DNA of 64,000 nucleotides, from contig JAOZFT010000035.1 in the NCBI GenBank assembly GCA_027492035.1, positions 32,001 through 96,000 of the forward strand. Direction: 5' to 3'. The notes beneath the pieces were generated by a model that was given only the letters and a program-made list of their open reading frames with translations, did no database searches and was not told where the DNA came from. This stretch comes from Thermoproteota archaeon. Its GTDB lineage: Archaea > Korarchaeota > JAOZGF01 > JAOZFZ01. Below are positions 27,580-55,781 of this stretch, in pieces. Numbering within the stretch: the first letter of the stretch is position 1; the number at the start of each line of letters is the position of its first letter. A program made the translations under genes and the position numbers.

Positions 27580-28791
27580 CTAGATTTCCTCCTCTTCTAA
27601 AGAACTTAAATAATCCTTAATTGCTCTAAAATAAATCTCAGCAACCTTAAATATGGATTTAATATTAACCCATTCATTTTTACTGTGAGCTCCCTCTCCA
27701 TCAGGCCCAAAACCACATATACACGGTACACCGTGAGTTATAAACATCCATCCGTCATTCCAAGGTCCACACCCCTCAACTTTAGGTTTAAACCCTAAAA
27801 CATCAAAAAAAACTTTAACTAAAACATTAACAATTTCTTCATCCGGAGAAATTTCAACTGGAGGTACGTAAAGCAAATCCTCTAAAACATAATCAACACC
27901 CAAACCCTCCAACCTACTCCTAATTAAGTTTTTCACTTGCTCTTTATTATTGCTAGGAAGTAATCTAACATCTCCATAAGCTACACATTCATCAGGGACC
28001 ATGTTAACACCTTTACCGCCTTCAATCAACGTTGGAAAAGTAAAAACAGGTTTCCTACCTGGAAAAGTTTTACTTGGAACAAAAGGAACCTCCAAACCTT
28101 TCAAAGCATTAATTACTTTAAACATATCTAAAACAGCGTTTCTTCCTCTCCACCTCCTCTCCCACTCCAGTAAACCGGTGTGAACAGCTTCACCGAAAAC
28201 TTTAATCCTAAACCTGTAACCTCCACGATGGCCAATGGTCACCCTTTCACAACCAGGTTCCCCAATAATTGCAGCGTCTCCCTTTAAACCATGTTTTAAA
28301 AGAAAAAGGGTTCCGTAACTGGAACAAGCACAAGGTTCCTCGTCAACAACAAAAGTTAAAATTAACTTGCCCTGTAAGTCGTCTTCAAAATTAAGCAGCC
28401 TCTTAGTTACGTAAACAAAAATCCCTAAAGAAGCCTTCATATCCAAAGAACCTAAACCATACAATTTACCATTCTTCACTTCACCAGAAAAAGGGTTAAA
28501 GCTGTAGCCTGCAGCCGGTGGAACAGTGTCCATGTGACCATTTAAGACCAAAGTTTTACCTTTACCAAACTTAACTTCAGCTACAACGTTGGGTCTGAAA
28601 AGGGAAACTCCTTTAAACACAGGGGATAAACCAAATTTCTCCAATTCATCAAAAACAGCTCTAGCAACATTTAACTCAACAGGTTCATCAGCTAAACTTC
28701 CACCAGGCTTAAAAAAATTAACACTTTTAATCCTAACAATTTTCCGAATAAACTTCAACATTTCAAAATTTAACTGCTGCAATGGCTCCAA
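27580..28791 (-). CDS. M20 metallopeptidase/deacylase (ArgE/DapE family)
   Basis: NGHMDTV, GLGSLDMK, DEE, GEP, GAHSKNE. Confidence 0.9.
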   Translation of the reverse strand: MEPLQQLNFEMLKFIRKIVRIKSVNFFKPGGSLADEPVELNVARAVFDELEKFGLSPVFKGVSLFRPNVVAEVKFGKGKTLVLNGHMDTVPPAAGYSFNPFSGEVKNGKLYGLGSLDMKASLGIFVYVTKRLLNFEDDLQGKLILTFVVDEEPCACSSYGTLFLLKHGLKGDAAIIGEPGCERVTIGHRGGYRFRIKVFGEAVHTGLLEWERRWRGRNAVLDMFKVINALKGLEVPFVPSKTFPGRKPVFTFPTLIEGGKGVNMVPDECVAYGDVRLLPSNNKEQVKNLIRSRLEGLGVDYVLEDLLYVPPVEISPDEEIVNVLVKVFFDVLGFKPKVEGCGPWNDGWMFITHGVPCICGFGPDGEGAHSKNEWVNIKSIFKVAEIYFRAIKDYLSSLEEEEI

Positions 28792-28966: not shown

Positions 28967-31564
28967 TTGAAACACGCATTAAGGAAGAGAGTAAACCCTA
29001 GAAAGAAGTCTTCCCTAATATTCACCTTAATACTTATAACAACCCTCCTTTTAATTGCTCAAATACCTTACCAAACTGCAGCAGTAAAAATTAACAAGAA
29101 AAACTCTGAAATAGCCTCCGTAACTTTAGAACCAGTAAAGGATAACTATCTCACTGACCACTACCCAACTAGTTCATTCGGAGGATTGACCTTTCTAGTA
29201 ATTGGAGCGTATGTTCCGGCAGGAACCACTTACCGGTACCGACCCATTTTGCAATTCGATCTTAGCAGCATCCCTTCAGGTTCCACAATAACAAGTGCAA
29301 AGTTAAGGTTAACAAAATGTTGCGCGACAGGGGGGCCAGGTGGTAACTTTTATGTCTATGTTTATAGGTTAACAACTAACTGGGATGAAACTCACTCTTC
29401 TTGGAATTATAAAGAAACCGGGGTCTTGTGGGCGCATCCTGGAGGAGATTATTCAGGGTACTATGGTTCTTTTTATGTCACATCTGGTGTTGCTTACGGA
29501 ACCCATTTTGAAGTTGACGTAACAAATCTGGTTAAGAAATGGGTGGATGGCACTTACCCAAACTACGGGATATTGCTTAGATCATCTGTTGAGAGCAGTG
29601 CTACTACGAACTGGATTAAATTTGCTTCAAAAGAATATAGTGATTCAGACTGGAGGCCTAAACTAATTATTGAGTATACTCCCCCAGTTACTCCCACTAT
29701 CACTTTAACACCTACTCCTGTTTCTAGAAGTGTTGAGCAGGGAAGTTCAACTAGTTACTTAGTTTCTGTTACAGCTACCGCTGTTTCCGGTGATATTGGT
29801 TTAACTGTTTCTGGTCTGCCTTCCGGTGCAACCTACAGTTTCACCAGCAACAACCAACCTGCCCCTTACACTTCAACTTTAACAATTTCAACCAGCGGCA
29901 CAACACCAACTGGAACCTACACTTTAACCATTACCGGCGCCGGTGGAGGTGTAACAGGTACTGCTCATGTTACTTTAGAAGTTACTGCCCCAGCTGTTAC
30001 ACCTGACTTTTCTATCGATGTTTCCCCGAATTCTCAAACAGTTTCTCCTGGCAACAGTGTCGATTACAGTGTTTCTGTTAATCCTTCACCGATTTTTTCA
30101 AACCCTGTTTCTTTAACTGTTTCTGGTCTGCCTTCCGGTGCAACCTACAGTTTCACCAGCAACAACCAAGTTCCAGGTTTCACTTCAACTCTGAGCATTT
30201 CCACTTCAAGCTCTACTCCAACTGGAACCTACACTTTAACCGTTACAGGTTCAAGTGGGAGCTTAACTCACAGTGAAACAGTAACTTTGGTTGTTAGTCC
30301 TGCTGCTGATTTCTCAATAAGTGTCACTCCACCTAACTTAGCTGTTAAGGCTGGTGAAAGAGCTAACTTTGCAGTTACAATAACCCATATAGGAGGGTTT
30401 AGTTCCTCTACCCAAATTTTAATTTCTGTTGAAGGGTTACCCTCAGATGCTTCCCCCTCCTTGTCTTCATTCACAACTACAAGTACAGGGAGACATGGGT
30501 ATTTACGTATAGCTACAGGCTCAACTACTGGCACATTTCCTTTGACGATTATAGCCACTGGAGGAGGAAAAACTCACACTGCAGCTGTGACTTTAACCAT
30601 TACTCCAGGAGGTGCTACCCCCACAGCTTCACCTACTGCTTCCCCTTCGGCTCCACCCACAGCTTCACCTACTCCTTCCCCTTCACCTACTCCTTCCCCT
30701 GGAGCCTTTGATTTCACTTTAACTCTTTCTCCTTCAAGCAGTGAAATTTTCCAAGGTGAAGTTGCTACGTTTGTTGTTCAAGCTAGTCTTGTTTCAGGCA
30801 CTGCTCAACCTTTAACATTAACTGTTTCTGGTCTGCCAAGCGATGCTACTTACACATTTAACCCACCTACTGTAACTCCTACAGGTACTTCAACCTTAAC
30901 TGTTACGGCTGGTTCATCAACTGGTTCATTCACCTTCGTCATTACTGCCAGTGGTGGGGGCTTAACTAAAACAGTGACTGGTTCCTTAAAAATTTCAACT
31001 AAGAAATGCATAATTGCTACTGCTACATATGGTTCTGAGCTTTCAAGTGAAGTAATGTTCCTAAGAAAATTCAGAAACAATTTAATACTGAAAACTTACA
31101 GTGGTAAACAGTTCTATAAAGTTTTTGATGCATTCTATTACTCTTTCAGTCCCCAGGTTGCTCAATTTATTTTGGAACATCCACAAATTAAACCTTTAAT
31201 GAAAGCTCTACTTTACCCGTTAATGGCTTCTCTGCATGTTTCTGCTTTAACTCAGCCCTTGTTCAGTTTAAACCCTGAACTTGGAACAATTACTGCCGGT
31301 TTAATTGCTAGTGCTTTAATAGGATTGCTTTACTTAACACCTTTACTTATAGCTTTAAGTTTCATAGTTAGAGGGTGGAATTGGAAAACTAGAAAATTAG
31401 TTCTTGTTTTCGCAACTGCTTCCTTAACTTCCTTTGTTACACTGGTCAGTGGAACAATTCTCTCTATAGATTACTTAACAATGCTTTCCTCTGCAGTGTT
31501 TGTAGTTTCTACAATGTTACTTACTCCGTCAACTTTTCTTATTGGTTTACTTAAAAATAAATAA
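28967..31564 (+). CDS. Large surface (glyco)protein: DNRLRE-like domain, four Thr/Ser-rich Ig-like repeats, Pro/Ser linker, CFI-box-CTERM sorting domain and TM helices
   Basis: LQFDLSSIPSGSTITSAKLRL, NYGILL, RPKLIIEY; repeated DFS..SP..GLPS..GTYTLT units; KCIIATATYGSELSSEVMFLRKFRN..YYSFSP. Confidence 0.85.
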   Translation: MKHALRKRVNPRKKSSLIFTLILITTLLLIAQIPYQTAAVKINKKNSEIASVTLEPVKDNYLTDHYPTSSFGGLTFLVIGAYVPAGTTYRYRPILQFDLSSIPSGSTITSAKLRLTKCCATGGPGGNFYVYVYRLTTNWDETHSSWNYKETGVLWAHPGGDYSGYYGSFYVTSGVAYGTHFEVDVTNLVKKWVDGTYPNYGILLRSSVESSATTNWIKFASKEYSDSDWRPKLIIEYTPPVTPTITLTPTPVSRSVEQGSSTSYLVSVTATAVSGDIGLTVSGLPSGATYSFTSNNQPAPYTSTLTISTSGTTPTGTYTLTITGAGGGVTGTAHVTLEVTAPAVTPDFSIDVSPNSQTVSPGNSVDYSVSVNPSPIFSNPVSLTVSGLPSGATYSFTSNNQVPGFTSTLSISTSSSTPTGTYTLTVTGSSGSLTHSETVTLVVSPAADFSISVTPPNLAVKAGERANFAVTITHIGGFSSSTQILISVEGLPSDASPSLSSFTTTSTGRHGYLRIATGSTTGTFPLTIIATGGGKTHTAAVTLTITPGGATPTASPTASPSAPPTASPTPSPSPTPSPGAFDFTLTLSPSSSEIFQGEVATFVVQASLVSGTAQPLTLTVSGLPSDATYTFNPPTVTPTGTSTLTVTAGSSTGSFTFVITASGGGLTKTVTGSLKISTKKCIIATATYGSELSSEVMFLRKFRNNLILKTYSGKQFYKVFDAFYYSFSPQVAQFILEHPQIKPLMKALLYPLMASLHVSALTQPLFSLNPELGTITAGLIASALIGLLYLTPLLIALSFIVRGWNWKTRKLVLVFATASLTSFVTLVSGTILSIDYLTMLSSAVFVVSTMLLTPSTFLIGLLKNK
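29800..30169 (+). repeat. 58-bp exact direct repeat (29800-29857 and 30112-30169), period 312 bp
   Basis: tttaactgtttctggtctgccttccggtgcaacctacagtttcaccagcaacaaccaa occurs twice; ccaactggaacctacactttaacc also repeats at +312; partial third copy near 30818. Confidence 0.9.
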
Positions 31565-31620: not shown

Positions 31621-32742
31621 TTAGTTGCCTATTGTTACTGTTTCATGGATGTGCTCCATTATATCTCTAACTTGAACTCTTACTTTCCATTCTATCTGGT
31701 TTAATTGTTTCTGAAGTGTTTCTTCACAGGTTGGGCAAGCTGAAACAATTACTTCAGGTTTAGTTGAAAGAAGGTCTTTAAGTCTTTTTTTTGCTATTTC
31801 CTCAGCTATTTTGGGATTTGAAAACCTAAGTAAGCCTCCACTTCCGCAACAAAATGTTTCCTTGCCTTTATGTGGAGGACTCAATATTTTCACTCCTGTT
31901 TTTCTTAAAAGAAACCTAGGTTCATTTACTATGTTTAGCTGTCTAGCTAGTATGCAAGGGTCATGATAAACTACCCTTTCTTTCTCCCTGTACTTTCCAA
32001 TTTTAATTTTTCCTTTATTTACTAGTTCGATTAAGAAGGAAGTTATGTGTTTAATTCTCTTTTTTATTTTTAAACCGTATTTGGGATATATTTCTTTGAA
32101 CGTGTAAGTACAGCTTGGACATAAAGTAATTATTTCCTTAACTTCTAAATTGTTTATTTCTTCAGCATTCACTTTCCCTATCTCTATAAACTCTTTTTTG
32201 AACCCTGCTTGAAGTAAAGGTAAACCGCAACATTTCTCATGGACAGGTGAAGTCATGAACCCTGTTTTTGTTTTTCTTAAAAAATTGATTACAGCTTCCA
32301 CTGTCTTGCCTCTAAATCTTGAGGCTGAACAACCTATATAGAGAAGTACTTCAGGTTTTCCTTCTTTCTCGCCTGCATACTTTTCAGAGTACTCCATTCC
32401 GAAAAGGTTCATTTTTTCCGTTATTTCTTTTACTTGTTTCAAATAGAAGGGCACTAAATTATTTTCTCCAAGTTCCTCCTTTATTTTTCTCAACTCTTCC
32501 CCCAAAGAAATGTTTAACGGACAAATTATTTGACAGGCTGAACATTCAGTGCAAAGGTAGAAAAGATTAACTGAGTTTGTGACGTCCAAAATCTTCTTTT
32601 TAAGATATAAGTAAGCTACTCTAGCTTTTCCTGAAGGTGAAACTGTTTCTGTGTTTTTTGCAAGAAAAACTGGGCAATTTGCTCCGCAAATGTTTGGACA
32701 GACTGAACAAATTAAAATGTTTCTGTATTTTCCTCTCCACAT
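31621..32742 (-). CDS. Fe-S oxidoreductase, GlpC/HdrD/GlcF-like (two 4Fe-4S motifs plus two CCG domains)
   Basis: CSVCPNICGANCP, CTECSACQIICP, KCCG, CPSC, YHDPC, FCCG, ACPTC. Confidence 0.88.
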   Translation of the reverse strand: MWRGKYRNILICSVCPNICGANCPVFLAKNTETVSPSGKARVAYLYLKKKILDVTNSVNLFYLCTECSACQIICPLNISLGEELRKIKEELGENNLVPFYLKQVKEITEKMNLFGMEYSEKYAGEKEGKPEVLLYIGCSASRFRGKTVEAVINFLRKTKTGFMTSPVHEKCCGLPLLQAGFKKEFIEIGKVNAEEINNLEVKEIITLCPSCTYTFKEIYPKYGLKIKKRIKHITSFLIELVNKGKIKIGKYREKERVVYHDPCILARQLNIVNEPRFLLRKTGVKILSPPHKGKETFCCGSGGLLRFSNPKIAEEIAKKRLKDLLSTKPEVIVSACPTCEETLQKQLNQIEWKVRVQVRDIMEHIHETVTIGN

Positions 32743-32777
32743 ATTAATAATCCTTCTTTCAAATGTTTTCCAAAAAT

Positions 32778-34229
32778 TTAGATGAGTTTACCTGGATTCA
32801 TTATTTCTGAGGAATCGAAAACTTCCTTTATTTTCTTTAGTAACCTATATGTTGATTCACCTATTTCTTCTTTTAACCACTTCTTTCTAAGTAGCCCTAT
32901 TCCATGGTGGTGACTTATTGTTCCACCTGACTCTAAACATGCTTTCATGGCTTTGCTCCAGAAGTTAAAGTAGAAATCTTCAAGTTTAACGTCTTCCGGA
33001 GGTATCCCCCCTATTGTAAAGTAAAGACATGCTCCGTTAAGGTAGAAATGAGAAGCATGAGCTGAAGATAATAGTACCCCCTCTATGGAAGATATTTCTT
33101 TTTTCATTTTTCTATAAAGAGTAGGTATTTTGCTCCAAGTTGCAGCTACTTCAACTGTGTCAAAAACAACTTTCATTGGTAAATATTGGGAAATATCTGT
33201 TATGACATCGAATCTTTCATTCAGCCATTTTTTCACGGGTTCTTCGCCGCAATTTTTAGCTCCTTCATTTTTGCAGATTCTTTCGATTGCTTTCTTCTCC
33301 TGTCCAGTTATTTCCTTCATTCCCTCAACAATGAAAATACCTAACGACTCCCTATCCTCAGTAAAATCTTGAAATTTCAGCTCTGTCTCGTCTTCATCAT
33401 ATAAACGTATAACTGCAGGGTAAATCCCCTTTCTTAAAATCTTTCTTGCCGCTTCCAAACTTTCGGTGAAGCTTTTAAATTTAAAGGATAAAAGCTTTTT
33501 TTCCTCTGGTAAAGGCCAAATTTTAAGTGTTGCTTTAGTTATTACTCCTATTGTTCCTTCAGAGCCTAGAAATAATTTTTCAATTTCTGGGCCTGTGGAG
33601 GAAGCTGGTTTAATTTTGGAATTAATTATTTCGCCATTAGGTAAAACTGCTTCTAAACCTAAAACTAAATTTTCTATTTTCCCATATTTTGTTGAAAACT
33701 GTCCTGCAGCTTTAGTAGCTATCCATCCGCCTAATGTAGAAGCTGGGAGAGATTGAGGAATATGCCTGGAAGTGTATCCTCTAGAATTAAGTTTCTCTTC
33801 CAGTATTTTTCCGTTTATTCCAGCTTCAGCAGTGACTGTTAAGTCTAAATCATTTATTTCAATTATTTTGTTCATTTTTTTTAAATCTATAACTATTCCC
33901 CCTTTTAAAGGAACTACTCCCCCTGTAACGCTTGTTCCTCCTCCATAGGGGATCACAGGCACTTTTTCTTCCTTTGCTAACTTAAGGATTTCTGAAACTT
34001 GCTCAGTGTTAATGGGCCATGTGACGAAGTTAGGAAGTGAAGGCAAGTACCCCTTAAGAAACCATTGAAGAGAAATTGGCCAATAACCTCTTGAGTAAGA
34101 AATAAGGTCTATTTCTTTTTCAGAGAAGTTTTTTTCATCTAATATCTTAACAAGTTTTTTCTTGATTCTCCTCTTCTTTTCTTCTGGAAACTTGATTTTA
34201 CCTGTGTAAATTTCCTTGTAGTTATTCAT
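32778..34229 (-). CDS. FAD-linked oxidase, alkyl-dihydroxyacetonephosphate synthase (AGPS)-like
   Basis: PYGGGTSVTGG, HIPQS..STLGGWIAT, YGKIE, GSEGTIG, GACLYFT, SHHHGIG, MNPGKL. Confidence 0.85.
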   Translation of the reverse strand: MNNYKEIYTGKIKFPEEKKRRIKKKLVKILDEKNFSEKEIDLISYSRGYWPISLQWFLKGYLPSLPNFVTWPINTEQVSEILKLAKEEKVPVIPYGGGTSVTGGVVPLKGGIVIDLKKMNKIIEINDLDLTVTAEAGINGKILEEKLNSRGYTSRHIPQSLPASTLGGWIATKAAGQFSTKYGKIENLVLGLEAVLPNGEIINSKIKPASSTGPEIEKLFLGSEGTIGVITKATLKIWPLPEEKKLLSFKFKSFTESLEAARKILRKGIYPAVIRLYDEDETELKFQDFTEDRESLGIFIVEGMKEITGQEKKAIERICKNEGAKNCGEEPVKKWLNERFDVITDISQYLPMKVVFDTVEVAATWSKIPTLYRKMKKEISSIEGVLLSSAHASHFYLNGACLYFTIGGIPPEDVKLEDFYFNFWSKAMKACLESGGTISHHHGIGLLRKKWLKEEIGESTYRLLKKIKEVFDSSEIMNPGKLI

Positions 34230-35718
34230 TTTTGCTTAACCATTCCCTAGATCTTTCAACTGCCCTTTTCCAGTTTAAGTAAAGTGTTTCTATTTTTTTC
34301 TCTTCAATTCCTGGTTTAAACACCTTATCAACTTCTCTTCTTTCCGTTATTTCTTTAAGAGAATTGTAGATACCTGCTCCTAAACAGGCAAGATAAGCTG
34401 CACCCAAACTTGTAGCTTCCGAAACTTTAGTTCTCTCAACTTCCAAGTTTAAACAATCAGCCATAAATTGGGCAACAAAATTATTCTTGGAAACTCCCCC
34501 GTCCAGCCTTAACTTTTCAATTTTAAGTTTTAAATCCTTTTCCATAACTTCCACGATATCCTTTACTCTGTAAACTATTGACTCCAGAACAGCTCTAACT
34601 ATATTTTCTCTGCTTATTTCTCTAGTTAAACCTATCAGTAACCCGCGTGCGTAAGAATCCCAGTAAGGGGAAGATAAACCTGTGAAAGCAGGTACAAAAT
34701 AAACTCCTTTGTTGCTTCCAGCTTTAAAAGCCAGTTTTTCTGATTCATCAACTTCCTTAATGATTTTCAAGTTATCTTTTAACCAAAGAACAGCTTCACC
34801 TGCCACATATGAGTAACCTTCAACCATAAAAAATGTTTTGCCGTTTATTTTCCAAGCCACTAAAGGAACTAGGCCGTGGCCGGGGATTTTAAACTTTCTT
34901 CCTATGTTGACATCTACAAACCCTCCTGAGCCTAAAGTGCATTTTGTGTCTCCCTTACTGAAACATGCTTCACCGAAAAGGGCTGATTGCTGATCCCCTG
35001 TAGCAGAAATTATCTCTAAAGGTTCTCCAAAAAATGATTTATCTACGTAGCCAAATCCTCCATTGGTTTCCCTTATTTCAGGAAGTATTTCTGAAGGAAT
35101 TCCAAACATTTCAAGTAAATCTTCCCACCAAGTAAGTTCAAAATAATCAAACATTCCTGTAGAGCTTGCGTTTGAAAAATCTGTAGCGTGAATTTTCCCT
35201 TTAGTTAATCTCCAAATAATGTATGTGTCTATTGTGCCGAAAATTATTTTTCCATTTTTGATTTTCTCTCTTATATCATTAACGTTTTCAATTAACCACT
35301 TAATGTACATTGAGGAAAGGGAAGGGTTAAATATTCTCTGAAGCTCTTCAGGCATTTCTTCACCGTATTCCCTCTTCATTTCAGCACTTAACTGAGAAGT
35401 TCTTGTATCCATCCAAGTTAAAGCGTTATATACAGGTAATCCCTTATCCTTATCCCAAAGTATCGTAGTTAATCTCTGGTTAGTAACAGCTAAACCTTTA
35501 ACTTCACTTACTTCAACTTTGCTCTTAACCAAAACCTTCTTTAAAACTTTTAAACTTTTTTTAAAAATTGTTTCAGGGTCTTGTTCGACCCAGCCGGGTT
35601 TAGGGTGTTTCAAAGGAAGTTTCTCAGAAACTGAAGCTAGAAAACCTTTCTCTTCATCGTAAACGAATGCCTTTACGTTTCTTGTCCCTTCATCTAAAAT
35701 TAAAATATATTTTTCCAA
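34222..35718 (-). CDS. glpK: FGGY glycerol-kinase-family kinase, GK5/Archaeoglobus-like subgroup
   Basis: PGWVEQDP, TNQR, FGTIDT, GDQQSALFG, VPAFTGL; NASST and GDTKCTLGSGGFVDVN resemble GK5. Confidence 0.8.
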   Translation of the reverse strand: MEKYILILDEGTRNVKAFVYDEEKGFLASVSEKLPLKHPKPGWVEQDPETIFKKSLKVLKKVLVKSKVEVSEVKGLAVTNQRLTTILWDKDKGLPVYNALTWMDTRTSQLSAEMKREYGEEMPEELQRIFNPSLSSMYIKWLIENVNDIREKIKNGKIIFGTIDTYIIWRLTKGKIHATDFSNASSTGMFDYFELTWWEDLLEMFGIPSEILPEIRETNGGFGYVDKSFFGEPLEIISATGDQQSALFGEACFSKGDTKCTLGSGGFVDVNIGRKFKIPGHGLVPLVAWKINGKTFFMVEGYSYVAGEAVLWLKDNLKIIKEVDESEKLAFKAGSNKGVYFVPAFTGLSSPYWDSYARGLLIGLTREISRENIVRAVLESIVYRVKDIVEVMEKDLKLKIEKLRLDGGVSKNNFVAQFMADCLNLEVERTKVSEATSLGAAYLACLGAGIYNSLKEITERREVDKVFKPGIEEKKIETLYLNWKRAVERSREWLSKNE

Positions 35719-35728
35719 TTTATTTTCC

Positions 35729-36088
35729 TCAAACCCTTTTAACTCTCCGTGAAGCTACAACTTTAACATTTTCAACTAAAAAATCCTTAATTATTACTTG
35801 TCCAGTTTTTACAGGTGCTTCAACTTCTACGTAAGCCAGCTTTTTCATTGCTTCCATCAAAACTTTTCTAGGCAGAGGTTTACTTGTTTTTATAGGTAAA
35901 AACTTTATTTCTCCATTCTTTACAGGTACAGTAGTAGTTAATATCCTAACAGGATTCAAAGCTTCTGTTTTTGCAAACTTTAAGCCTTTCTCACATTTAT
36001 TACCTTTAACTGACACTTCCCCCTTTTCAACTGTGATAACTACTTCACAGCCTACAGGACAAACTATACAAATGATTTTTTTCTTCAA
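35729..36088 (-). CDS. DUF1667 small subunit (CxxCPxGC)
   Basis: CIVCPVGC, GNKCEKG, RILTTTV, APVKTG; usual partner of archaeal/firmicute G3P dehydrogenase. Confidence 0.88.
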   Translation of the reverse strand: MKKKIICIVCPVGCEVVITVEKGEVSVKGNKCEKGLKFAKTEALNPVRILTTTVPVKNGEIKFLPIKTSKPLPRKVLMEAMKKLAYVEVEAPVKTGQVIIKDFLVENVKVVASRRVKRV

Positions 36089-37332
36089 CTTTTCCTCACT
36101 AATTTAAAAGTTATTTTCTCACCTTTTATTTTTAGCAATTCCTCCCTTTTCAAATTTACTTTAACCATTTCATTTGGTTTAATTTTTTGGAAGTATTTTC
36201 TCCAATTTATTTCTTTAATTGAAAGAAAAACTTTTTCTTCAGGTTTCTTCACTCTTAAATAAAACGAAACGTCCTTTAAGCAAGTCACTCTTTGAGGAAC
36301 AACAAATTTTATTTTTTTGTTAAAAGAAACCTTTCTTTCTTCTGCTTTTTTCATTCCTTTTTTTAAGTAAAAATTCACTCCCTCAGCTGCGGTTTCAGCG
36401 TTTTCTACAACATAATCAACTAAATCAAATATTACTAAACTGTTTCCGCAAGAGAACAGAAAGGGAGCTGTTGTTTGGAAGTAGTCATTAACTACTGGCC
36501 CTAAAGTATTACTGTCCATTTCAATACCTATTTCACTAACTAATTCGTTTTCAGGTACTAATCCAACGGAAAAAATTACTGTGTCACATTTTATTTCTTT
36601 CTCGGTTCCTTTTAAAGGATTTAAGTTTTCATCCACTTTAACTATCTTAATTCTTTCCACTCTTTCCCTTCCTCTTATTTCTGTAGCTGCATGGCTTAAA
36701 TAAAGTGGTATGTTGAAGTCCTGAAGGCATTGAACAATGTTTCTTTGTAACCCTCCAGGGTAAGGCATTATTTCAATCACTCCTTTCACCTTAACTCCTT
36801 CCAATGTTAATCTTCTGGCCATAATTAACCCTACATCTCCTGAACCTATAATTACTGCTTCTTTCCCTGGAAGATAGCCTTCAATATTGATAAGTTTCTG
36901 AACTAAACCTGCTGTAAAAACTCCTGCTGGTCTGTCACCCGGAATTTTAACATCCCATCTTGTCTTCTCTCTAGCTCCAGTGGCTAAAATTACAGCTTTA
37001 GATTTTATTTTCATTACTCCCAATTTCTTGTTTACAGCTATAACTTCTCCTTTTCTACTTATTTTTAGGGCTGTTGTGTCAGTGAATGTTCCTATACCAA
37101 TTTCTTCAACTTTATCTATAAATCTTTGAATGAATTCAGGCCCTGTTAATTCTTCTTTGAAATATTTTAAACCGAAACCTGGATGTATACATTGAGGAAG
37201 TACACCCCCTAAATATTTCTCTCTTTCAATCACCACCTGGTTAGTTAAACCTAGTTTGTAAGCCTTAATTGAAGCAGCTAAACCTGCAGGACCTGAACCT
37301 ATAACCACTAAATCAACTTTCCTCTCAATCAT
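36085..37332 (-). CDS. FAD/NAD(P)-dependent oxidoreductase subunit of the G3P dehydrogenase complex
   Basis: GSGPAG, LPQCIHPGFG, ELTGPE, GSGDVGLIMARRLTLEG. Confidence 0.88.
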   Translation of the reverse strand: MIERKVDLVVIGSGPAGLAASIKAYKLGLTNQVVIEREKYLGGVLPQCIHPGFGLKYFKEELTGPEFIQRFIDKVEEIGIGTFTDTTALKISRKGEVIAVNKKLGVMKIKSKAVILATGAREKTRWDVKIPGDRPAGVFTAGLVQKLINIEGYLPGKEAVIIGSGDVGLIMARRLTLEGVKVKGVIEIMPYPGGLQRNIVQCLQDFNIPLYLSHAATEIRGRERVERIKIVKVDENLNPLKGTEKEIKCDTVIFSVGLVPENELVSEIGIEMDSNTLGPVVNDYFQTTAPFLFSCGNSLVIFDLVDYVVENAETAAEGVNFYLKKGMKKAEERKVSFNKKIKFVVPQRVTCLKDVSFYLRVKKPEEKVFLSIKEINWRKYFQKIKPNEMVKVNLKREELLKIKGEKITFKLVRKS

Positions 37333-38805
37333 TCAGGCACCTTTCAAAAGCTCCTTTATTTTATATAGAAGAATCAATGATTTTCCTCCCTTTTTAGTTA
37401 TTTTCTTAACTGGGATTTTCAGTTCCCTGCTCAGTATCTCCAAAATTTTTGGTGTGCAGAAGCTTCCTTGGCACCTTCCCATCCCTGCCCTTGTTCTAAA
37501 TTTCACACCGTCCAAAGTTTTTGCTCCTCTTTTAATTGCTTCAACAACTTCAGCTTCAGTTACTTGTTCACATCTGCAAATTATTCTTCCGTAACCAGGG
37601 TTTTCCTTTATCATTTTATCTTGTTCTTCAGGAGGGTAATCAGTAAGTTTGTTTATTCTTTTTCTGTAAGGGTTAAAACTTCCCTTCCTTTCAAGTTTTA
37701 ATCCTTCCTTTCTCAGCAGCTCTGTAACCATTTTAGCTATTGCAGGTGCAGCTGTCAAGCCAGGAGACTGTATACCTGCAACGTTTATGAAACCTTTAAC
37801 TTTTGTTCTTTCAATTACGAAGTCTCCCTTTTCAGAAGCAGCTCTTACTCCTGCGAAGCAAGTTATTATTTTTAGGGGAAAGTCAGGAAACAAAACATTG
37901 TAAGTGTTAATTATCTCCTCTATATCCTTTCTAGACACTGAAGTATCTTCTTTACTTCCTGTTTCCTTTAGATTAGGTCCCCATAAGGGGTTCCCTTCAA
38001 CTGTTAATAAAGCCCCTCCTCCCTTTGTTCTTGGATCCTGCTTAATTTTAGCTTCTGCAACATAGTGTCTGTAATATCCTCTAAGTTTCTTATCAAAAAC
38101 AATCATGCACCCTTTCCTAGGAACTATTTTAAAGTTTCTTACACCGGCTGTTTCAGCTACTTCATCTGAATAAAGACCTGCAGCATTAACAACGTAACTT
38201 GTTTCAATTACTCCCTTATTTGTTTTTACTCCCTTAACTTCTCCATTCTCAACTAACACCTCCTCAACTTTTGTTCCGAGTAATGTTTTCACTCCGTTCT
38301 TTTGTGCATTTTCAATCAAGGCGAAAGTTAATTCATAAGGGGAAATAACTCCACCTGAAGGGAAAAGGAGTGCACACTTAGCTTTATTTGTTAAATTAGG
38401 TTCAACTTTCCTTAGCTCCCTTTTATTAAGAAACTTAACCTGTATCCCTCTCCATTTCATCACTAAATAAACCAAGAAAAGAAAAAATGTTTCTTTCCTG
38501 TTTAAAGAAACGAAAAGTAAACCACAACGATTAAAAGGAACATCTAGCTCCTCAGTTAACTTGTCCATTAATTTATTACCTTCAACACAAAGTTTTCCCT
38601 TCAAAGAATTAAAAGGGGTAACGAAAGGGTGGATAATGCCTGAACAACCCTTACTGGCGCCTTGGCAGAAATCAACTTCTTTTTCAACAACAACTACGTC
38701 CACTTTGTATTTAGAAAGCTCCCTAGCTATACTGCACCCTACAACTCCACCTCCAACTATTACAACATCTGTTTTTAAAGAAGGTTTCAAAAAAAATTTA
38801 GACAA
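37333..38805 (-). CDS. glpA: FAD-dependent glycerol-3-phosphate dehydrogenase-like subunit with C-terminal BFD [2Fe-2S]
   Basis: GGGVVG, SGIIH, NAAGLYSD, GIQSPGLTAAPA, CRCE..RAGMGRCQGSFC. Confidence 0.85.
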   Translation of the reverse strand: MSKFFLKPSLKTDVVIVGGGVVGCSIARELSKYKVDVVVVEKEVDFCQGASKGCSGIIHPFVTPFNSLKGKLCVEGNKLMDKLTEELDVPFNRCGLLFVSLNRKETFFLFLVYLVMKWRGIQVKFLNKRELRKVEPNLTNKAKCALLFPSGGVISPYELTFALIENAQKNGVKTLLGTKVEEVLVENGEVKGVKTNKGVIETSYVVNAAGLYSDEVAETAGVRNFKIVPRKGCMIVFDKKLRGYYRHYVAEAKIKQDPRTKGGGALLTVEGNPLWGPNLKETGSKEDTSVSRKDIEEIINTYNVLFPDFPLKIITCFAGVRAASEKGDFVIERTKVKGFINVAGIQSPGLTAAPAIAKMVTELLRKEGLKLERKGSFNPYRKRINKLTDYPPEEQDKMIKENPGYGRIICRCEQVTEAEVVEAIKRGAKTLDGVKFRTRAGMGRCQGSFCTPKILEILSRELKIPVKKITKKGGKSLILLYKIKELLKGA

Positions 38806-38849
38806 AAAATCCCCCCTTAAAAAATTTTACGCTAACATTTCTCGCCAAG

Positions 38850-39750
38850 ACCCAGTTTACACAGGTTTTGGTAAGCCTATGTAAACTTTGGTGTGCATCA
38901 GCCTCTTCTCCCTCCATTTCATTGGGAGTAAGTCATAGGTTCCGCACCCTTTCATGAAGCCTTTTCAGAGTTCTTATAGATGTGCCTTTCCGTCTTTCCA
39001 TAAACCTCACCAGTGGTCTCGAAACTAAATGGCAAAAGATGCTTGGACTCTAGGAGCCTACATCCCCTAAAATATATACCTACTACTCTAAATAACTGTC
39101 TATCGAGTGTAGCCTACATCTGGAGGTGCTTAACCACCTATCCCTTTTCGAAGCTTCATTAACATGTATCTACACACATATTTTTTAATGTAAGGTTAAA
39201 TTATTTCTAAAAAGGTTTTACATGGCTTATTTTCCTCAATAAGGATTTTAGAAGAGATTTTCAGTTCCTTTTCTCTGTCTCAGATTGCTTTTAATATTAA
39301 AATAGTTTTTTATAACGTTTTTACTATGTTCTAAAACTCCTAATTTATGTTTTACAGTCCTTATACGTAAATGCTTATGCGATTTCTTTCTTAAATCTAA
39401 TGCTTTCTGGTTGGTAAAAACCCTGCAGAAGATCTATTTAGTGTCTTTTCACAATTTTTTTGGCTTTCTTAAGAATGAACAAAGTATTTTATGGTTAACA
39501 AGCTTTACCCTGGATTCGTAGCTCATGAACTGGGCTATTGCCTTTCAGTTCTGTTTAGCAATGCCCTTATTATGTTTCTTTCCTTTGGTGTACCTTCCTA
39601 CTTCTCTAAATTCTTAAAACCGTGTCCAATATCAGAAATAATCTAAACATTAACCACATAATTTAATGTAGAAAGTCTCTAACCCTCGCCTCTTTCCCTT
39701 CCTACCTGCTTCTGAATAATCTTAATATCTTTCCATCTTTTTACTTACTA
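38850..39750 (-). pseudogene. tnpB: Decayed IS200/IS605-family tnpB (IS1341-type) in several frames
   Basis: Collinear minus-strand fragments: EARVRDFLH (39692-39666), HGFKNLEK (39624-39601), YTKGKKHNKGIAKQN*KAIAQFMSYESRVKLVN (39592-39494), MKLRKG (39159-39142), TLDRQL (39110-39093), KGCGTYDLLPM (38952-38920). Confidence 0.72.
38854..38887 (-). ncRNA. 12-bp hairpin at the tnpB 3' end, candidate right-end/omegaRNA stem
   Basis: Minus-strand AGUUUACAUAGG-N10-CCUGUGUAAACU; the single non-Watson-Crick pair is U-G on this strand. Confidence 0.45.
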
Positions 39751-40062
39751 AGTATTACATTCGCTTAATAAATATTCGCAGTTTCATCTAATTTGTTTTC
39801 TGAACAGGTTAAAAGTAAAAAACCAGGTTAAAAAAGGAATTTATAGAAAAAGAAACGTTGCTGATGCTTTTCTTAAAAAAATTGAAAAATTTCCTGATCT
39901 GAAAATGTAAAAAAGCCAATAAAGACAACTCTGTCACTCTTCAGTTAAACAATTTAAAAAGAGAAACCGCAAAGATTTCTTGTTCAGAGGAACTGTTCAG
40001 GTAGAAAAGGAGGAATTCCTGGGTAGGAATTAAAAATAGTTTTAGGTTAAAAAAAGAAAAAA

Positions 40063-41559: not shown

Positions 41560-42438
41560 TTATTTTTTCACGAGTTTAATTACATGTTTCAAGATTTCTT
41601 CAGCTATGTTCTTTTCTGTAACTGTTTGAAGTCCTCTCCATGCAGGGATACTGTTTACTTCAATAAAATAATACTTTCCGTCTTCTGACTTCAAAATATC
41701 TACTCCAGCATATTCACAACCAAGAAATTGAGTAATTTTCAAACTTTTCTCTTTCAACTCCTTTGCTGGCTTTATTTTTTCAGCAACTGCTCCTTGGCTA
41801 ATGTTTGTTTTCCATGTTTCACCCTTTCTTTTCATTGCCGAGACGACTTTGTCACCCACGATAAAAACCCTTATGTCCTCCTTGTTGTGGGGAATAAACT
41901 CCTGTAAGTAAAAAGTATTTCTTGATAGTTGCAGAAACCTAAAATATCTGTGCGCAACGTCTCTGTTATCTACCCTAAATGTCCCTTTACCTTGAGCCCC
42001 AAATAAAGGCTTAACCACTACATCTTCACCCAATTCCTTAAAGGCATCCATTGCCTCCCAAAAATCTTCAGTAACTACTGTTTTAGGTGTAGGTAAACCT
42101 AAATCCTCAAATAAATAAGAAGTGTAATATTTATCGCATGTTTTTTCTATGCAGGAGGGTGAATTAATCACTTTCACCCCCAAATCCTCTAATCTATGCA
42201 AAACATCCATTCTAAAAATTAAATGCTCTAAAGAAGCTATAGGTGCCTCTCTAACAATTACAGCGTCCATATCTTCCAAAACATTTCCTTCGCTTGCCAC
42301 CTTGGGTTTCAAACCTATTTTTGCCATAAATTTCTTTATTGAGAAAAGGTAAGGCGTCAAATTGTAGCGATTAAAAACTTCAACAAGTTTCCTTACATGC
42401 CACTCTCCAGGTGTAGAAGTCAGAATACCTATTTTCAT
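41560..42438 (-). CDS. RimK-family ATP-grasp glutamate ligase (MptN/Orf5-like, C1-carrier glutamylation)
   Basis: FRMDVLHRL, DK, KPLFGAQG, QEFI, WKTNISQG, GVD, EVNSIPAW; adjacent to fwdC. Confidence 0.85.
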   Translation of the reverse strand: MKIGILTSTPGEWHVRKLVEVFNRYNLTPYLFSIKKFMAKIGLKPKVASEGNVLEDMDAVIVREAPIASLEHLIFRMDVLHRLEDLGVKVINSPSCIEKTCDKYYTSYLFEDLGLPTPKTVVTEDFWEAMDAFKELGEDVVVKPLFGAQGKGTFRVDNRDVAHRYFRFLQLSRNTFYLQEFIPHNKEDIRVFIVGDKVVSAMKRKGETWKTNISQGAVAEKIKPAKELKEKSLKITQFLGCEYAGVDILKSEDGKYYFIEVNSIPAWRGLQTVTEKNIAEEILKHVIKLVKK

Positions 42439-42660
42439 TTCCGAAATCCTAAGAGTATTTCAAGAATAACTTTTTTCTTTAAAAAGAGCCTTGAAAGTAA
42501 ATTAAAGAAGGGGGAAGAACCTATAAAATTTTTTCTGTTAAGGGATTTACTAAGTAAGGAGTGTCTACTTCTCAGGTGCTTTAGAGAAAGGAAATTTAAT
42601 ATTAATTAGTTTATATAGCTTCTAAGCCCTTAAAAAGTTGGGAAAGGAGAATAGAGACAG

Positions 42661-43491
42661 TTATCCTTTATAAATGAATATTTCTCCTTTACCTAACTCT
42701 GAAACATCACCATGGTAACGTTCATAAAGGCCTTCAACTTTAACAGGGACTCTAATATTTAGTTTCTCTCTCAACTCCTTGAAATAGTACCTTATAAACA
42801 GAGGGGAATATGTGTTGTCGTAAATAAATGTAGGAAGCATTTCCTGTATTTTACCGAAACAAATTATTGTTCCTCTTTTCATCAGCATTCCTGGCCTGTT
42901 TCCAATATTCCCTAAACTTATAACTGTGCCTGCTATCATCTGGGCTGCCAGGTTATCTCCTACACTGTCATAAACAATTATTGTTCCTCTTCTCATTTTC
43001 CTAGCTAAACTGTTTCCAGCTTTACCTTCAATCACTATTATTCCGCCTCTCATCCCTCTAGGGTTTCCAGGGTAGGCTGAAGCAAACATGTTCCCAACGT
43101 TGCCCTTAATCCGTAATATGCCATTCCTAAACTCTGTTGCAGACCAATCTGACACGTTTCCCTCTACAACTATTTCTCCTCCTCTCATCTCATCGGCTAA
43201 GTGCATGCCTGCGTTTCCTTTAACCGTAATTTTTCCAGTAGCCATTTGTTTCCCAATATACTTAACCTTGGATAAATCCCCTTTCAAAATTATGTGGGTT
43301 TCTGAAACTTCTTCAGATTTTTCACCTTCAACCTTAAAGTAATCCCCTAATTCCTCTTTTCTCTTCCCTCTCCAAACTATTAATTTCTTGATTTCGTCCA
43401 GGGTCCTGCCTGCAAAATTTTCAGGTGTAATTGTTTCGGCTTCAATAGGTAGTGCAGGTTCCTTCTTAAGGGTTAAAATTATTTTCTTCAT
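42661..43491 (-). CDS. fwdC: Formylmethanofuran dehydrogenase subunit C
   Basis: GXGXG beta-helix repeats (MRGGEIVVEGN, GMRGGIIVIEG), GKGEI at the C-terminus. Confidence 0.92.
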   Translation of the reverse strand: MKKIILTLKKEPALPIEAETITPENFAGRTLDEIKKLIVWRGKRKEELGDYFKVEGEKSEEVSETHIILKGDLSKVKYIGKQMATGKITVKGNAGMHLADEMRGGEIVVEGNVSDWSATEFRNGILRIKGNVGNMFASAYPGNPRGMRGGIIVIEGKAGNSLARKMRRGTIIVYDSVGDNLAAQMIAGTVISLGNIGNRPGMLMKRGTIICFGKIQEMLPTFIYDNTYSPLFIRYYFKELREKLNIRVPVKVEGLYERYHGDVSELGKGEIFIYKG

Positions 43492-43510
43492 TTCTCACTC
43501 CCTCCAAGAA

Positions 43511-44425
43511 TCAAAAACAATCCTTTAATTTTATACTGTACTGTCCCAGTTTCCCTCCGTAATTGGCAGCAGTAATCATTTTCACTCCTTCAACCTGTGT
43601 AGCAGCTTCAATTCCAACTTTCATGGCCTCCTTAACAGCTTCGAGCGATAAACCGTCAATAACAATTTCAAATATTGAAGCAACCCCTTCAGGCACTCTT
43701 GTTCCTTCCACCATCCCCTTTATTGATGGGCAAAAGGCTGTATTGGTTGAAGCGTGTAAAAACTTATACTTGGAGCCCACTTTGCTTCCGCTTCTGCAAA
43801 CCCCGCCAGGGAATGGGGTAACTGCATCCTCGACTCCAGCAATTGCTTCAACAGCTTTCTCTGAGGCCTTAAGAGCTGACTCAACCGTTTCACCAAGTAT
43901 TAAAAAGTTTCCTCCACCAACACTCTTTTTAGCCTTGAATTTTTCTTCTAAGAAGAACTCCCCCTCCATTACAGGGATCCTCCAAAGTCTCCTACCAAAA
44001 ATTTTCTTACTTATCTGGTAACCATCACCAAAAAACCTTAACTGAGCACCAATTTTAAACTCGGTATCTCCCACACCTAACCAATCATAGGCTGCAGTAG
44101 TAGGACACGTTAAAACAGTCTGTCCAATTCTTCTCATCAATTGATCCTTCAACTGTTTCTTGGTGTTTGCAAACACTAAAACACTGACACCAGGCCTTCC
44201 GTCAGGTGTTTCACTTGGCGGAACAACTTTTTCGATTGCAACTTCACCTCCGCACATAATTACTGACGTTCCAAAACCACTCATGGACCGTGCTGAATTC
44301 ATAGCCCATCTCTCGTTTATTGCAGTAATTAATACTTTGCTTCCCCACATTTTAAAGGCTTCAGCAAACGTATCCTTAACCTTTACTCCATTTACTTCAA
44401 AAAAAGAGTCTGCAGGCATCGTCAC
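43511..44425 (-). CDS. ftr: Formylmethanofuran:H4MPT formyltransferase
   Basis: DTFAEAF, TPDGRPG, RIGQTVLTCPTT, GGGNF, SGSKVGS, ANYGGKLG. Confidence 0.95.
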   Translation of the reverse strand: MTMPADSFFEVNGVKVKDTFAEAFKMWGSKVLITAINERWAMNSARSMSGFGTSVIMCGGEVAIEKVVPPSETPDGRPGVSVLVFANTKKQLKDQLMRRIGQTVLTCPTTAAYDWLGVGDTEFKIGAQLRFFGDGYQISKKIFGRRLWRIPVMEGEFFLEEKFKAKKSVGGGNFLILGETVESALKASEKAVEAIAGVEDAVTPFPGGVCRSGSKVGSKYKFLHASTNTAFCPSIKGMVEGTRVPEGVASIFEIVIDGLSLEAVKEAMKVGIEAATQVEGVKMITAANYGGKLGQYSIKLKDCF

Positions 44426-44466
44426 TTCCTCCTCATACCTTTTTTAAAGTCAGGAAACCACCTTGC

Positions 44467-44481
44467 TTTTATATATATATT
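44467..44481 (-). promoter_or_regulatory. TATA-box candidate for ftr-fwdC
   Basis: Minus-strand ATATATATATAAAA about 45 nt upstream of the start; GAGGAGG SD in between. Confidence 0.4.
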
Positions 44482-44639
44482 TGTGTTTTTGTTTACACAT
44501 CCCACTTATATTTTTTTCTTTATATTTAGTTCATAACCCGAATGTTTCTAACCCTTACCTTAACTCCCCTTCAAGCATTACCCTCTTTAAAGATAGTCCA
44601 ATGTTTTCACCGTCTTTTTCCACTTTTTTGGAAGGGTTG

Positions 44640-44780
44640 CGAGTGGCTTTTTTTAGAGGACACTGTGAAGCATCTACGTGGAAGATTTTAAAAACATGTT
44701 CCAGCAGCAACCAAGTATCCACCTGCCACAAAACCGCATTCTTTACAACAACATAAACTTCTGTTCGGTTATTTAGTTTC
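44640..44780 (-). pseudogene. Short probable tnpB C-terminal (Zn finger/RuvC-III) remnant
   Basis: CKECGFVA (44747-44724) followed by LVAA and frameshifted WNM, resembling CxxCGxxxDRDxxAAxNI. Confidence 0.4.
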
Positions 44781-44870
44781 TAAAAAGAAAAGAAGAAGTT
44801 CATTAATTTTCCCAGTATTTTTAAGGCTGTTGTTAACCCTTTCTGTAACTTTGTTTATCCACTAGAGTCT

Positions 44871-46565: not shown

Positions 46566-46589
46566 TTTTCTCTTCTCCTCCCCTTCATC

Positions 46590-47882: not shown

Positions 47883-47897
47883 TAAACACCTTCCTCT

Positions 47898-48296
47898 TTA
47901 TTCATAGCCCTCAACTATTTCCTGAATAGTGAGAATTCTTTCACCTGATGCTTTATACACTTTAGCCTTTATTCCTTTAAAGGAAGGCATACTTATTCCT
48001 TCCGTATCCACGGGTGAAATTAAACTTGTCCAGGGACCGTAAGGCATGAAGATGATTCCGCGATCTATTTCCCTTGAAGCTTTACATTTCACAGCCACGG
48101 AACCGTACTCTGTTTCAACTTTCACAGTGTCTCCTTCCTTTACATTTATCTCACTCATGTCCTGTTGATTCATTTGGACAGTTGACAAGTGTTCAAAGTA
48201 TTCCTTTGAAGTTTTACCTATCTCTAAGGTTTCTCCTTGTTTATCTGTCCTCCCAGTTATCAAAACAGCTTCTAACTTCTTCATTTGATTCACCAT
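47898..48296 (-). CDS. fwdD: Formylmethanofuran dehydrogenase subunit D
   Basis: LITGRT..QG, FMPYGPW, MPSFKG. Confidence 0.92.
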   Translation of the reverse strand: MVNQMKKLEAVLITGRTDKQGETLEIGKTSKEYFEHLSTVQMNQQDMSEINVKEGDTVKVETEYGSVAVKCKASREIDRGIIFMPYGPWTSLISPVDTEGISMPSFKGIKAKVYKASGERILTIQEIVEGYE

Positions 48297-48547
48297 CCAG
48301 ATCTTAGAGGAAAAAAGGTTTTACAAACCTTCTCCTTAACGCGATTCCATTTTCAGCAGCTTATTCCCTAAACAAACTAAAATTTAAGTTAGATCTACTT
48401 TGCATGGGAACTTAAAAGCTTAAAAAATTTTACTTAATTTTCTTAACTCAGTCTTTCTTAATGGAATTTTTCCCAAACTTGTTCTTTGCTGGTATGTACT
48501 GGTAGATTAAGGTATTTCACCACAAATTACGTCTTGAAAGGTAATGA

Positions 48548-49510: not shown

Positions 49511-49551
49511 CCTTTTCACCTTTAGAGCCAAGGAAAAGAGAAAAGGTTTTT

Positions 49552-50391: not shown

Positions 50392-50816
50392 TTCAAAACA
50401 CCTATTGTTTGAGGGGGAAGAATTGAAAATAAAAATCCTTTCCCTTTTTAAATTTTTTATTTGTTCAATTAAGAATGAAAGAAAAAAAGTCATTCCGTTG
50501 GTAAATTTAAAAGGGAAAGCCTTTTCTACAAAAGAAAAGGCTTCATTGTCCTTCAATGTCATTTAAGAAATGAAAATGGTAAAAATATTGAAAGGAAGCT
50601 GGCGAAACAGTGACCTTTTACTTTAATTAAAAAAGTGCAATTAATATGCAGCAATATTAAAATATTTTTACATAATCTTTGCTAACGGTTTTAAACATGT
50701 TTTTGCTTCTTTTGTTTTTTAGACTGTAGCGGCTTCTTTCAATTTTTGCGAAGCAAAGTTTTCTCAGCTTGTTTAAGTGCTAAAAATGGAGGAAGGGTGA
50801 GTTTGGGATTTTCCCT

Positions 50817-55745: not shown

Positions 55746-55781
55746 TTACAACCTCTCCCTTTTTTCTTTTTTGAATTTCTT

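Follow-up and report, generated by a model that had tools for sequence, protein, structure and literature searches.

What does an archaeon do with a homologue of alkyldihydroxyacetonephosphate synthase (AGPS) when the gene is packed into one operon with genes for a glycerol-phosphate dehydrogenase, a glycerol-kinase-like protein and an iron-sulfur protein? The question is raised by six tightly packed open reading frames (ORFs) that run in the same direction on the minus strand, at positions 31621-38805, of a stretch of 64,000 nucleotides (hereafter the window, 64 kb) on contig JAOZFT010000035.1 (C38) of a Thermoproteota archaeon, whose genome of 1.87 Mb is 93% complete. Our tentative answer is that the six genes encode a catabolic route for a glycerol bearing a substituent, possibly an ether, at O1, in which a kinase and a dehydrogenase would prepare the substrate for an AGPS-type C-O cleavage carried out with a redox partner.

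In the order of transcription, the genes are joined by junctions of 0, -4, +10, -8 and +35 nucleotides, and purine-rich tracts precede the gene starts. Searches with Pfam and NCBIfam profiles assigned the domains listed in Table 1. According to these assignments, the operon could be divided into two modules: a glycerol-phosphate dehydrogenase of the FngABC type with a kinase derived from GlpK, and a flavoenzyme of the AGPS family with a soluble iron-sulfur partner containing CCG domains. A preliminary description of this DNA had reported a six-gene operon with overlapping or near-abutting ends and had named its products as GlpA-like, flavoprotein, DUF1667, kinase, AGPS-like and CCG proteins; both the layout and the identities agree with the ORFs and profiles obtained here.

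Table 1. Genes of the operon, in order of transcription, and neighbouring features of the window (FAD, flavin adenine dinucleotide; aa, amino acids)
Feature	Coordinates	Strand	Length	Domains and remarks
FngA/GlpA-like FAD dehydrogenase	37333-38805	-	490 aa	TTG start; DAO + C-terminal BFD-like [2Fe-2S]
FngB-like pyridine-nucleotide-disulfide-oxidoreductase-type flavoprotein	36085-37332	-	415 aa	Pyr_redox_2
FngC-like iron-sulfur protein	35729-36088	-	119 aa	DUF1667
GlpK-derived FGGY kinase, altered substrate pocket	34222-35718	-	498 aa	FGGY_N + FGGY_C
AGPS-like FAD enzyme	32778-34229	-	483 aa	FAD_binding_4 + FAD-oxidase_C
HdrD/GlpC/GlcF-type iron-sulfur protein	31621-32742	-	373 aa	two [4Fe-4S] motifs + two CCG domains
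M20 (ArgE/DapE-type) peptidase	27580-28791			
Probable surface protein	28967-31564	+	865 aa	DNRLRE/disaggregatase-related + CFI-box-CTERM
Region upstream of the operon	38806-40062		~1.25 kb	no fully contained ORF >51 aa
Methanopterin-type one-carbon genes	41560-50562	-		MptN-like ligase, FwdC, Ftr, Mch, Mtd; also FwdA-like amidohydrolase and molybdopterin subunits
Acyl-CoA block	52327-56939	-		aldehyde dehydrogenase, AMP-binding acyl-CoA synthetase, acyl-CoA dehydrogenase

The closest solved relatives of the AGPS-like enzyme by sequence are the AGPS of guinea pig (4bby, 229 bits) and Dictyostelium (211 bits), with mouse LDHD scoring 156 bits (phmmer against PDB). Its AlphaFold2 model (predicted local distance difference test, pLDDT, 83.4) retrieved AGPS as the top Foldseek match (template-modelling score, TM, 0.86, 31% identity) and LDHD as the second (TM 0.80). 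In the phmmer alignment with the guinea-pig enzyme, Tyr403 pairs with the tyrosine mutated in 4bca (Tyr578Phe), Arg275 with the arginine mutated in 4bc7 (Arg419His), and His440-442 with the His-His-His loop. The tyrosine and the histidines belong to the motifs GACLYF (residues 399-404) and HHH (440-442), which the preliminary description had pointed out as AGPS signatures. All five residues are invariant in the 18 aligned archaeal sequences (alignment A1), and a wider motif table showed the combination of Arg, Tyr and HHH in 19/19 archaeal rows, 5/5 rows fused to a CCG protein and 10/11 rows fused to a glycerol-3-phosphate (G3P) dehydrogenase, as well as in the FGGY-fused and true-AGPS rows. 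In contrast, rows of the GlcD/YdiJ type have Glu, a GDGNLH-type motif and AEHG or GEHG at these columns, whereas the AGPS-like enzyme carries NGACLYFTI and SHHHG at the columns of GDGNLH and GEHG. We take the GDGNLH-type and GEHG motifs to be the His/His/Glu metal-site ligands of GlcD/LDHD-type dehydrogenases. Since the archaeal and AGPS rows share a set of residues that the GlcD/YdiJ rows lack, the two signatures are real and diagnostic, and on sequence grounds the motif table excludes an active site of the GlcD/LDHD type. A second FAD oxidase, of the GlcD type and without Arg/Tyr/HHH, is encoded in the same genome next to another CCG gene (G000, contig C24:42304-44885); at least eight genes for CCG proteins were found genome-wide.

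Phylogenetic position was assessed with a quick maximum-likelihood tree of 62 rows (LG+G4; Shimodaira-Hasegawa-like approximate likelihood-ratio support only), in which many rows, including that of the window, were flagged for unusual composition. The rows comprised 45 of the 120 listed long homologues less P0206, P0220 and P0187, the 18 sequences of alignment A1, one relative from the same phylum, and a GlcD-like outgroup from the same genome. Sequences with Arg/Tyr/HHH formed a superclade split from the GlcD-type rows with a support of 99. Within it, the window enzyme grouped with archaeal sequences in one clade (99), the CCG-fused proteins of Bacillota being its sister group (96). True AGPS, that is, eukaryotic sequences and those with fused acyltransferase and reductase domains, formed a separate clade of 15 rows (stem 0.98, support 100), next to which stood bacterial proteins carrying a fused G3P dehydrogenase. 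Thus, the enzyme possesses AGPS-type residues, yet its place is outside the clade of characterised AGPS. Another clade (support 100) consisted of bacterial proteins of 880-992 amino acids, the named ones from Deltaproteobacteria, in which a full AGPS-like domain precedes a second FAD_binding_4-like domain, itself partial (P0121, P0125, P0126, P0129, P0131-P0145 and others).

The kinase is most similar among solved structures to the glycerol kinase of T. kodakarensis (2zf5, 478 bits). It exceeds the cut-off of NCBIfam model NF000756 (553 bits, cut-off 498), stays under that of the equivalog TIGR01311 (536 bits, cut-off 590), and returned solely glycerol-kinase clusters in a search of the ESM Atlas. 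In GlpK, glycerol is hydrogen-bonded by Arg83, Glu84, Tyr135 and Asp245 and packs against Phe270, as described in PMC3245297; Glu149 of a fungal glycerol kinase is likewise reported to bind glycerol (PMC7765489). Three of the five specificity residues (Arg83, Asp245 and Phe270) are kept in the window kinase, and two are lost, Glu84 being replaced by Leu83 and Tyr135 by Ser133. Its signature therefore reads R-L-S-L-D-F, compared with R-E-Y-F-D-F in 98 of the 120 nearest homologues, among them the named GlpKs of Thermococcus, Sulfolobus acidocaldarius, Thermotoga and Bacillus; the remaining 22, the window kinase included, have lost both Glu and Tyr. In a FastTree phylogeny of 143 rows, built from the 98 canonical kinases and 45 variants (these 22 and 23 GlpK-like kinases from loci with AGPS-like genes), all 45 variants lay on one side of a branch with a local support of 100, the branch of the window kinase being long. 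The preliminary description had labelled the kinase GK5-like; by tree and signature, it is a GlpK relative with two altered substrate residues and belongs to a GlpK-derived sister group beside the canonical GlpKs. The 93%-complete genome yielded neither a second GlpK-like gene nor a MIP/GlpF channel.

For the dehydrogenase genes, the FngA-like protein scored 230 bits with Pfam DAO and 59 bits with Fer2_BFD. Its NCBIfam matches, type-2 G3P oxidase (229 bits) and GlpA (168 bits), are both under the equivalog cut-offs, and its best solved relatives are 1y56_B (116 bits) and GlpO 4x9m (106 bits). The FngB-like protein matched Pyr_redox_2 with 107 bits and the FngC-like protein DUF1667 with 92 bits. 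A 2026 paper describes FngABC, purified from Pyrococcus furiosus, as a heterotrimer of DAO+BFD, Pyr_redox and DUF1667 subunits that couples the oxidation of G3P and reduced ferredoxin to the reduction of NAD+ and is encoded together with a glycerol kinase, with a role in the use of plain glycerol (PMC13689815). Operon genes 1-3 match this architecture in their domain content, from which the proposed likeness is drawn. The AGPS-like/CCG pair is not mentioned in the main text of that paper, and its supplements, as far as they were covered, gave no match for "alkyldihydroxyacetonephosphate" or "FAD-linked oxidase", the CCG (IPR004017) entries among the matches listed being GlpC.

Whether the two modules act together was examined by a linkage scan with one genome per species, which covered 238 confirmed relatives; counts of loci refer to the best 80 of them. 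The preliminary description had stated that similar gene sets exist in other archaea. The set does recur in many archaea of sediments, and the 80 loci span Thermoplasmatota, Promethearchaeota and other Asgard archaea, Bathyarchaeota, Theionarchaea, a metagenome-assembled genome of Thermococci, and Methanolliviera. The CCG gene directly follows the AGPS-like gene in 77 loci, and each of the three misses has less than 420 nucleotides of downstream sequence. An FGGY kinase is encoded in 59 of the 80 loci and in all 44 with at least 7.5 kb of downstream sequence. An FngA-like gene lies nearby in 17 loci (14 of the 19 from Thermoplasmatota), and FngA-like, FngB-like and DUF1667 genes occur together in 12. 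In Thermoplasmatota, the gene order is AGPS-like, CCG, FngABC, kinase, i.e., the six genes of the window permuted; the flanks of the two six-gene sets are unrelated housekeeping genes. An M20 peptidase gene is found near the unit both in the window and in a Thermoplasmatales locus (L022:15621-17105), probably by chance.

Natural fusions were found among the 120 long homologues listed. Five proteins of Bacillota with 42-44% identity (P0123, P0124, P0127, P0128 and P0130) join the AGPS-like enzyme to the CCG protein; thirteen (P0122, P0146, P0154-P0159, P0165, P0169, P0170, P0185 and P0205), from KSB1, Riflebacteria, Elusimicrobiota and unnamed sources, join it to a DAO-type G3P dehydrogenase; and one (P0171) joins it to an FGGY kinase. 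Through these proteins, the AGPS-like enzyme is physically connected with its iron-sulfur partner, a dehydrogenase of glycerol phosphate and a kinase. Given the adjacency in 77/80 loci, the kinase in 44/44 long loci and the fusions, the AGPS-like/CCG enzyme shares one pathway with the kinase and the dehydrogenase, as had been proposed from the operon.

Within the phylum of the source archaeon (43 genomes), the kinase was found in the source genome only, and no AGPS-like orthologue was found in relatives from the same family and the same order; the six-gene unit looks mobile. About 7-8 distant members of the phylum have a variant cluster with genes for a GlpA-like protein, a 313-amino-acid FAD protein, a divergent FGGY kinase, an AGPS-like enzyme and a Fer4 protein. 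In loci L011, L012, L013 and L015 (genomes G005, G007, G031 and G024), the 313-amino-acid protein has an FAD-binding N-terminus and the Fer4 protein is 251 amino acids long; in L011, a divergently oriented ABC transporter of the amino-acid type is encoded upstream.

From these data we infer the following route. The substrate is most likely not free glycerol but an O1-substituted glycerol, and the first candidate for the substituent is an alkyl or isoprenyl chain in ether linkage. Esters, glycosides and phosphodiesters already have simple hydrolases, so that an ether makes the most sense. First, the kinase, devoid of the glycerol-binding Glu84 and Tyr135, would phosphorylate the free primary hydroxyl. 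Second, the FngA-like enzyme would oxidise C2, yielding a 1-O-substituted dihydroxyacetone phosphate (DHAP), and 1-O-substituted DHAP is the class of molecules that AGPS binds. Third, the AGPS-like enzyme could expel the substituent as an alcohol, with the tyrosine as base, flavin N5 as electrophile, and assistance of the arginine and the His-His-His loop. Finally, the CCG protein would either take two electrons, if the cleavage is oxidative, or keep the flavin oxidised in the reducing cytoplasm. The loss of two of the five GlpK specificity residues and the separate clade of the kinase favour the earlier suggestion of a substrate other than plain glycerol.

Several further observations lend weak side support to an ether as the substituent. 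In the loci of Asgard archaea, the triad of AGPS-like, CCG and kinase genes is flanked by an alpha/beta hydrolase gene after the kinase (36 loci) and, directly upstream of the AGPS-like gene (38 loci, e.g., L091:6359-7837), by a gene for a 492-amino-acid protein without a Pfam family, which occurs within L031-L096. The model of the latter (pLDDT 85) is an alpha/alpha barrel that matched beta subunits of protein prenyltransferases best (Z 15.2-12.9 in the six top rows, next Z 10.7), although a Z of about 14 among helical folds may reflect a common arrangement. The match came from a wide structural search only, Foldseek returning nothing at E <= 0.001. In the window, the acyl-CoA block is located 13 kb from the operon; its products could act on a fatty alcohol or aldehyde once released, or take part in the fermentation of amino acids. 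Seven matches to acyl-CoA dehydrogenase were found in the genome. Lastly, a search of the 93%-complete genome for PF01553 acyltransferases found none, which argues against a synthesis of the AGPS type, as this needs acyl-DHAP.

Other observations weigh against the cleavage of an O1-substituted glycerol. None of the six operon proteins has a membrane-like hydrophobic segment in a hydropathy scan, and no lipase, transporter or lipid-binding protein is encoded in the operon or its flanks. The AGPS-like enzyme falls outside the true-AGPS clade, and at 483 amino acids, compared with 658 in guinea-pig AGPS, it lacks the AGPS N-terminal region of about 170 residues, the alignment beginning at AGPS residue 175. 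AGPS performs redox-neutral chemistry, for which an iron-sulfur partner is unnecessary; such a partner is nonetheless near-universal here, and in related FAD+CCG enzymes it marks a true dehydrogenase. FngABC with its kinase has a published role in the use of plain glycerol in P. furiosus (PMC13689815). An FngA-like gene lies nearby in none of the 45 Asgard loci, where the kinases are mostly XylB/LsrK-like rather than GlpK-like; 4 of 66 linked kinases (L044, L055, L072 and L073), all XylB/LsrK-like, carry Glu after Arg. The prenyltransferase-like match concerns an Asgard neighbour and not a gene of the window. Bacterial relatives fused to G3P dehydrogenase have no conserved neighbours, the largest cluster of foreign ORFs covering 7 of 80 metagenome loci, so the substrate is not revealed by these neighbourhoods. 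Overall, the gene identities, active-site residues and shared pathway of the preliminary description stand, and its link to lipids is left without support, there being no lipase, transporter, hydrophobic segment or placement among true AGPS.

A possible but doubtful alternative is that the operon serves the catabolism of free glycerol or a small polyol and that the AGPS-like/CCG pair is a dehydrogenase of a phosphorylated C3-C5 intermediate, for example, a second, non-bifurcating dehydrogenase of G3P or sn-glycerol 1-phosphate, or an oxidase of the keto-phosphate product, with electrons leaving through the CCG protein. This would explain the combination of FAD_binding_4 with CCG, the usual build of a substrate:acceptor dehydrogenase. 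The CCG protein, with 97 bits to Pfam CCG in two stretches, a Fer4_8 domain, Cys residues invariant in alignment A3, and a peak 19-residue hydropathy of 1.72 located over a Cys motif, is by its domain content a soluble protein of the HdrD/GlpC/GlcF type; its best NCBIfam matches, TfrB and LdhH (142 bits each), are under the cut-offs, and GlpC and GlcF are also among its matches. The same explanation is favoured by the iron-sulfur partner in 77/80 loci and the Fer4 protein in the variant cluster of the same phylum, by the XylB/LsrK affinity of the Asgard kinases, by the absence of hydrophobic segments from the operon proteins, and by the statement in PMC13689815 that the neighbours of many FngABC homologues are not glycerol genes but sugar kinases and polyol enzymes. 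However, it leaves unexplained why residues that define AGPS, and that are absent from GlcD-type dehydrogenases, are invariant, and why the kinase has lost two glycerol ligands. Moreover, two glycerol-phosphate dehydrogenases in a single operon would be redundant, and the direct fusion of G3P dehydrogenase to the AGPS-like enzyme suggests successive steps and not parallel enzymes.

It is improbable that the AGPS-like protein is a genuine alkyl-DHAP synthase making ether lipids of the bacterial or eukaryotic type, with the kinase and FngABC supplying DHAP from glycerol. AGPS is its best solved relative both by sequence and by fold, the catalytic residues are retained, many homologues are named alkyldihydroxyacetonephosphate synthase by JGI, and a reconstruction of LUCA, the last universal common ancestor, lists the family among the enzymes of ether-lipid synthesis (PMC11383801). 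On the other hand, the protein is separated from true AGPS by the well-supported stem given above, the 93%-complete genome gave no match to the PF01553 acyltransferase that would provide acyl-DHAP, and a reductase or acyltransferase gene is linked in none of the 80 archaeal loci. Matches to the reductase profile PF07993 in the genome are weak, and the same profile matches 14 of 14 control genomes. None of the fusions found includes the acylation that lies between DHAP and AGPS, the kinase departs from the canonical glycerol kinases, and a preprint on the origins of plasmalogens reports no evidence for that pathway in Archaea. Finally, a dehydrogenase of D-lactate, glycolate or another 2-hydroxyacid (GlcD/GlcF or LDHD type), lying next to the glycerol genes fortuitously or clearing D-lactate derived from methylglyoxal, which the preliminary description had named as its refuting case, is very improbable in spite of the match to GlcD TIGR00387 (239 bits, under the cut-off of 568), the LDHD fold and the GlcD-like/CCG pair on contig C24, since Arg, xxYF and SHHHG replace the Glu, GDGNLH-type and GEHG elements of the GlcD/YdiJ-type rows, the superclade is split from those rows, and the kinase is linked in all long loci.

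The surroundings of the operon are heterogeneous. The gene of the probable surface protein is convergent with the 3' end of the operon. The region upstream of the operon matched no Rfam family, its only repeats are short and chance-like, and an Rfam scan of the whole window yielded nothing at the gathering score. Scans for sigma-70 promoters and terminators, both ill-suited to archaea, gave counts no higher than in shuffled sequence. Farther upstream lies the block of methanopterin-type one-carbon genes (Table 1).

Ether lipids of archaea and bacteria form a large, slowly turned-over pool of carbon in sediments. To our knowledge, no enzymatic pathway has been described by which the ether bonds of glycerol are broken anaerobically, and none surfaced in our literature searches on the subject. 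Since a kinase and a dehydrogenase accompany the AGPS-type active site in a conserved gene set, the question of ether cleavage becomes testable with three recombinant proteins. On a wider view, which we regard as speculative and rather doubtful, the AGPS-like/CCG/kinase set would be a widespread oxygen-independent system for cleaving glycerol ether lipids in sediment archaea: a glycerol monoether would be phosphorylated and oxidised to alkyl- or isoprenyl-DHAP, and the alcohol expelled by covalent flavin chemistry. Its carriers are the main heterotrophs among the archaea of anoxic sediments (Asgard archaea, Thermoplasmatota, Bathyarchaeota and Theionarchaea-like lineages), and AGPS of eukaryotes and myxobacteria would then be a late offshoot of a catabolic family, run in the synthetic direction.

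Whatever the substrate, prokaryotic matches to "alkyl-DHAP synthase" need a new reading. The majority branch off outside the true-AGPS clade, and their connections are with iron-sulfur proteins, G3P dehydrogenases and kinases; for this reason, they should not be counted as evidence for ether-lipid synthesis in archaea or in LUCA reconstructions. Caution is accordingly advised regarding the LUCA reconstruction, which counts alkyldihydroxyacetonephosphate synthase among the enzymes of lipid synthesis (PMC11383801). The newly described FngABC family, in turn, is extended by a module of partner enzymes and by a subtype of kinase. In the literature searched, bioRxiv preprint supplements being outside its range, the gene set was nowhere found described; new here are the match to FngABC, the kinase without Glu84 and Tyr135, the locus-wide linkage, the fusions, and the position of the flavoenzyme outside the true-AGPS clade.

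The closest known systems each have parts in common with the operon. In the erythritol pathway of Brucella, an FGGY kinase (EryA) is followed by a GlpD-like FAD dehydrogenase (EryB) acting on the phosphorylated polyol, and there is no AGPS-like or CCG component. GlcDEF, D-lactate dehydrogenases and YdiJ fusions likewise combine FAD_binding_4/FAD-oxidase_C with a partner of two [4Fe-4S] motifs and two CCG domains, but their Glu, GDGNLH-type and GEHG elements are replaced here by Arg, Tyr and HHH. GlpK of E. coli and T. kodakarensis (2zf5) has equivalents of Arg83, Asp245 and Phe270 in common with the window kinase, which differs by Leu for Glu84, Ser for Tyr135, and its placement in a separate group of 45 rows. 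FngABC of P. furiosus consists of the same three domain types encoded together with an FGGY kinase, as in the window, where, however, the kinase lacks Glu84 and Tyr135 and the operon adds the AGPS-like/CCG pair. AGPS itself (EC 2.5.1.26; 4bby of guinea pig, 2uuu of Dictyostelium) has the same fold, and its aligned Arg, Tyr and His-His-His are kept in the window enzyme, which, in contrast to AGPS, comes with an iron-sulfur protein and has its gene linkage with a kinase and a dehydrogenase rather than with FAR/GNPAT.

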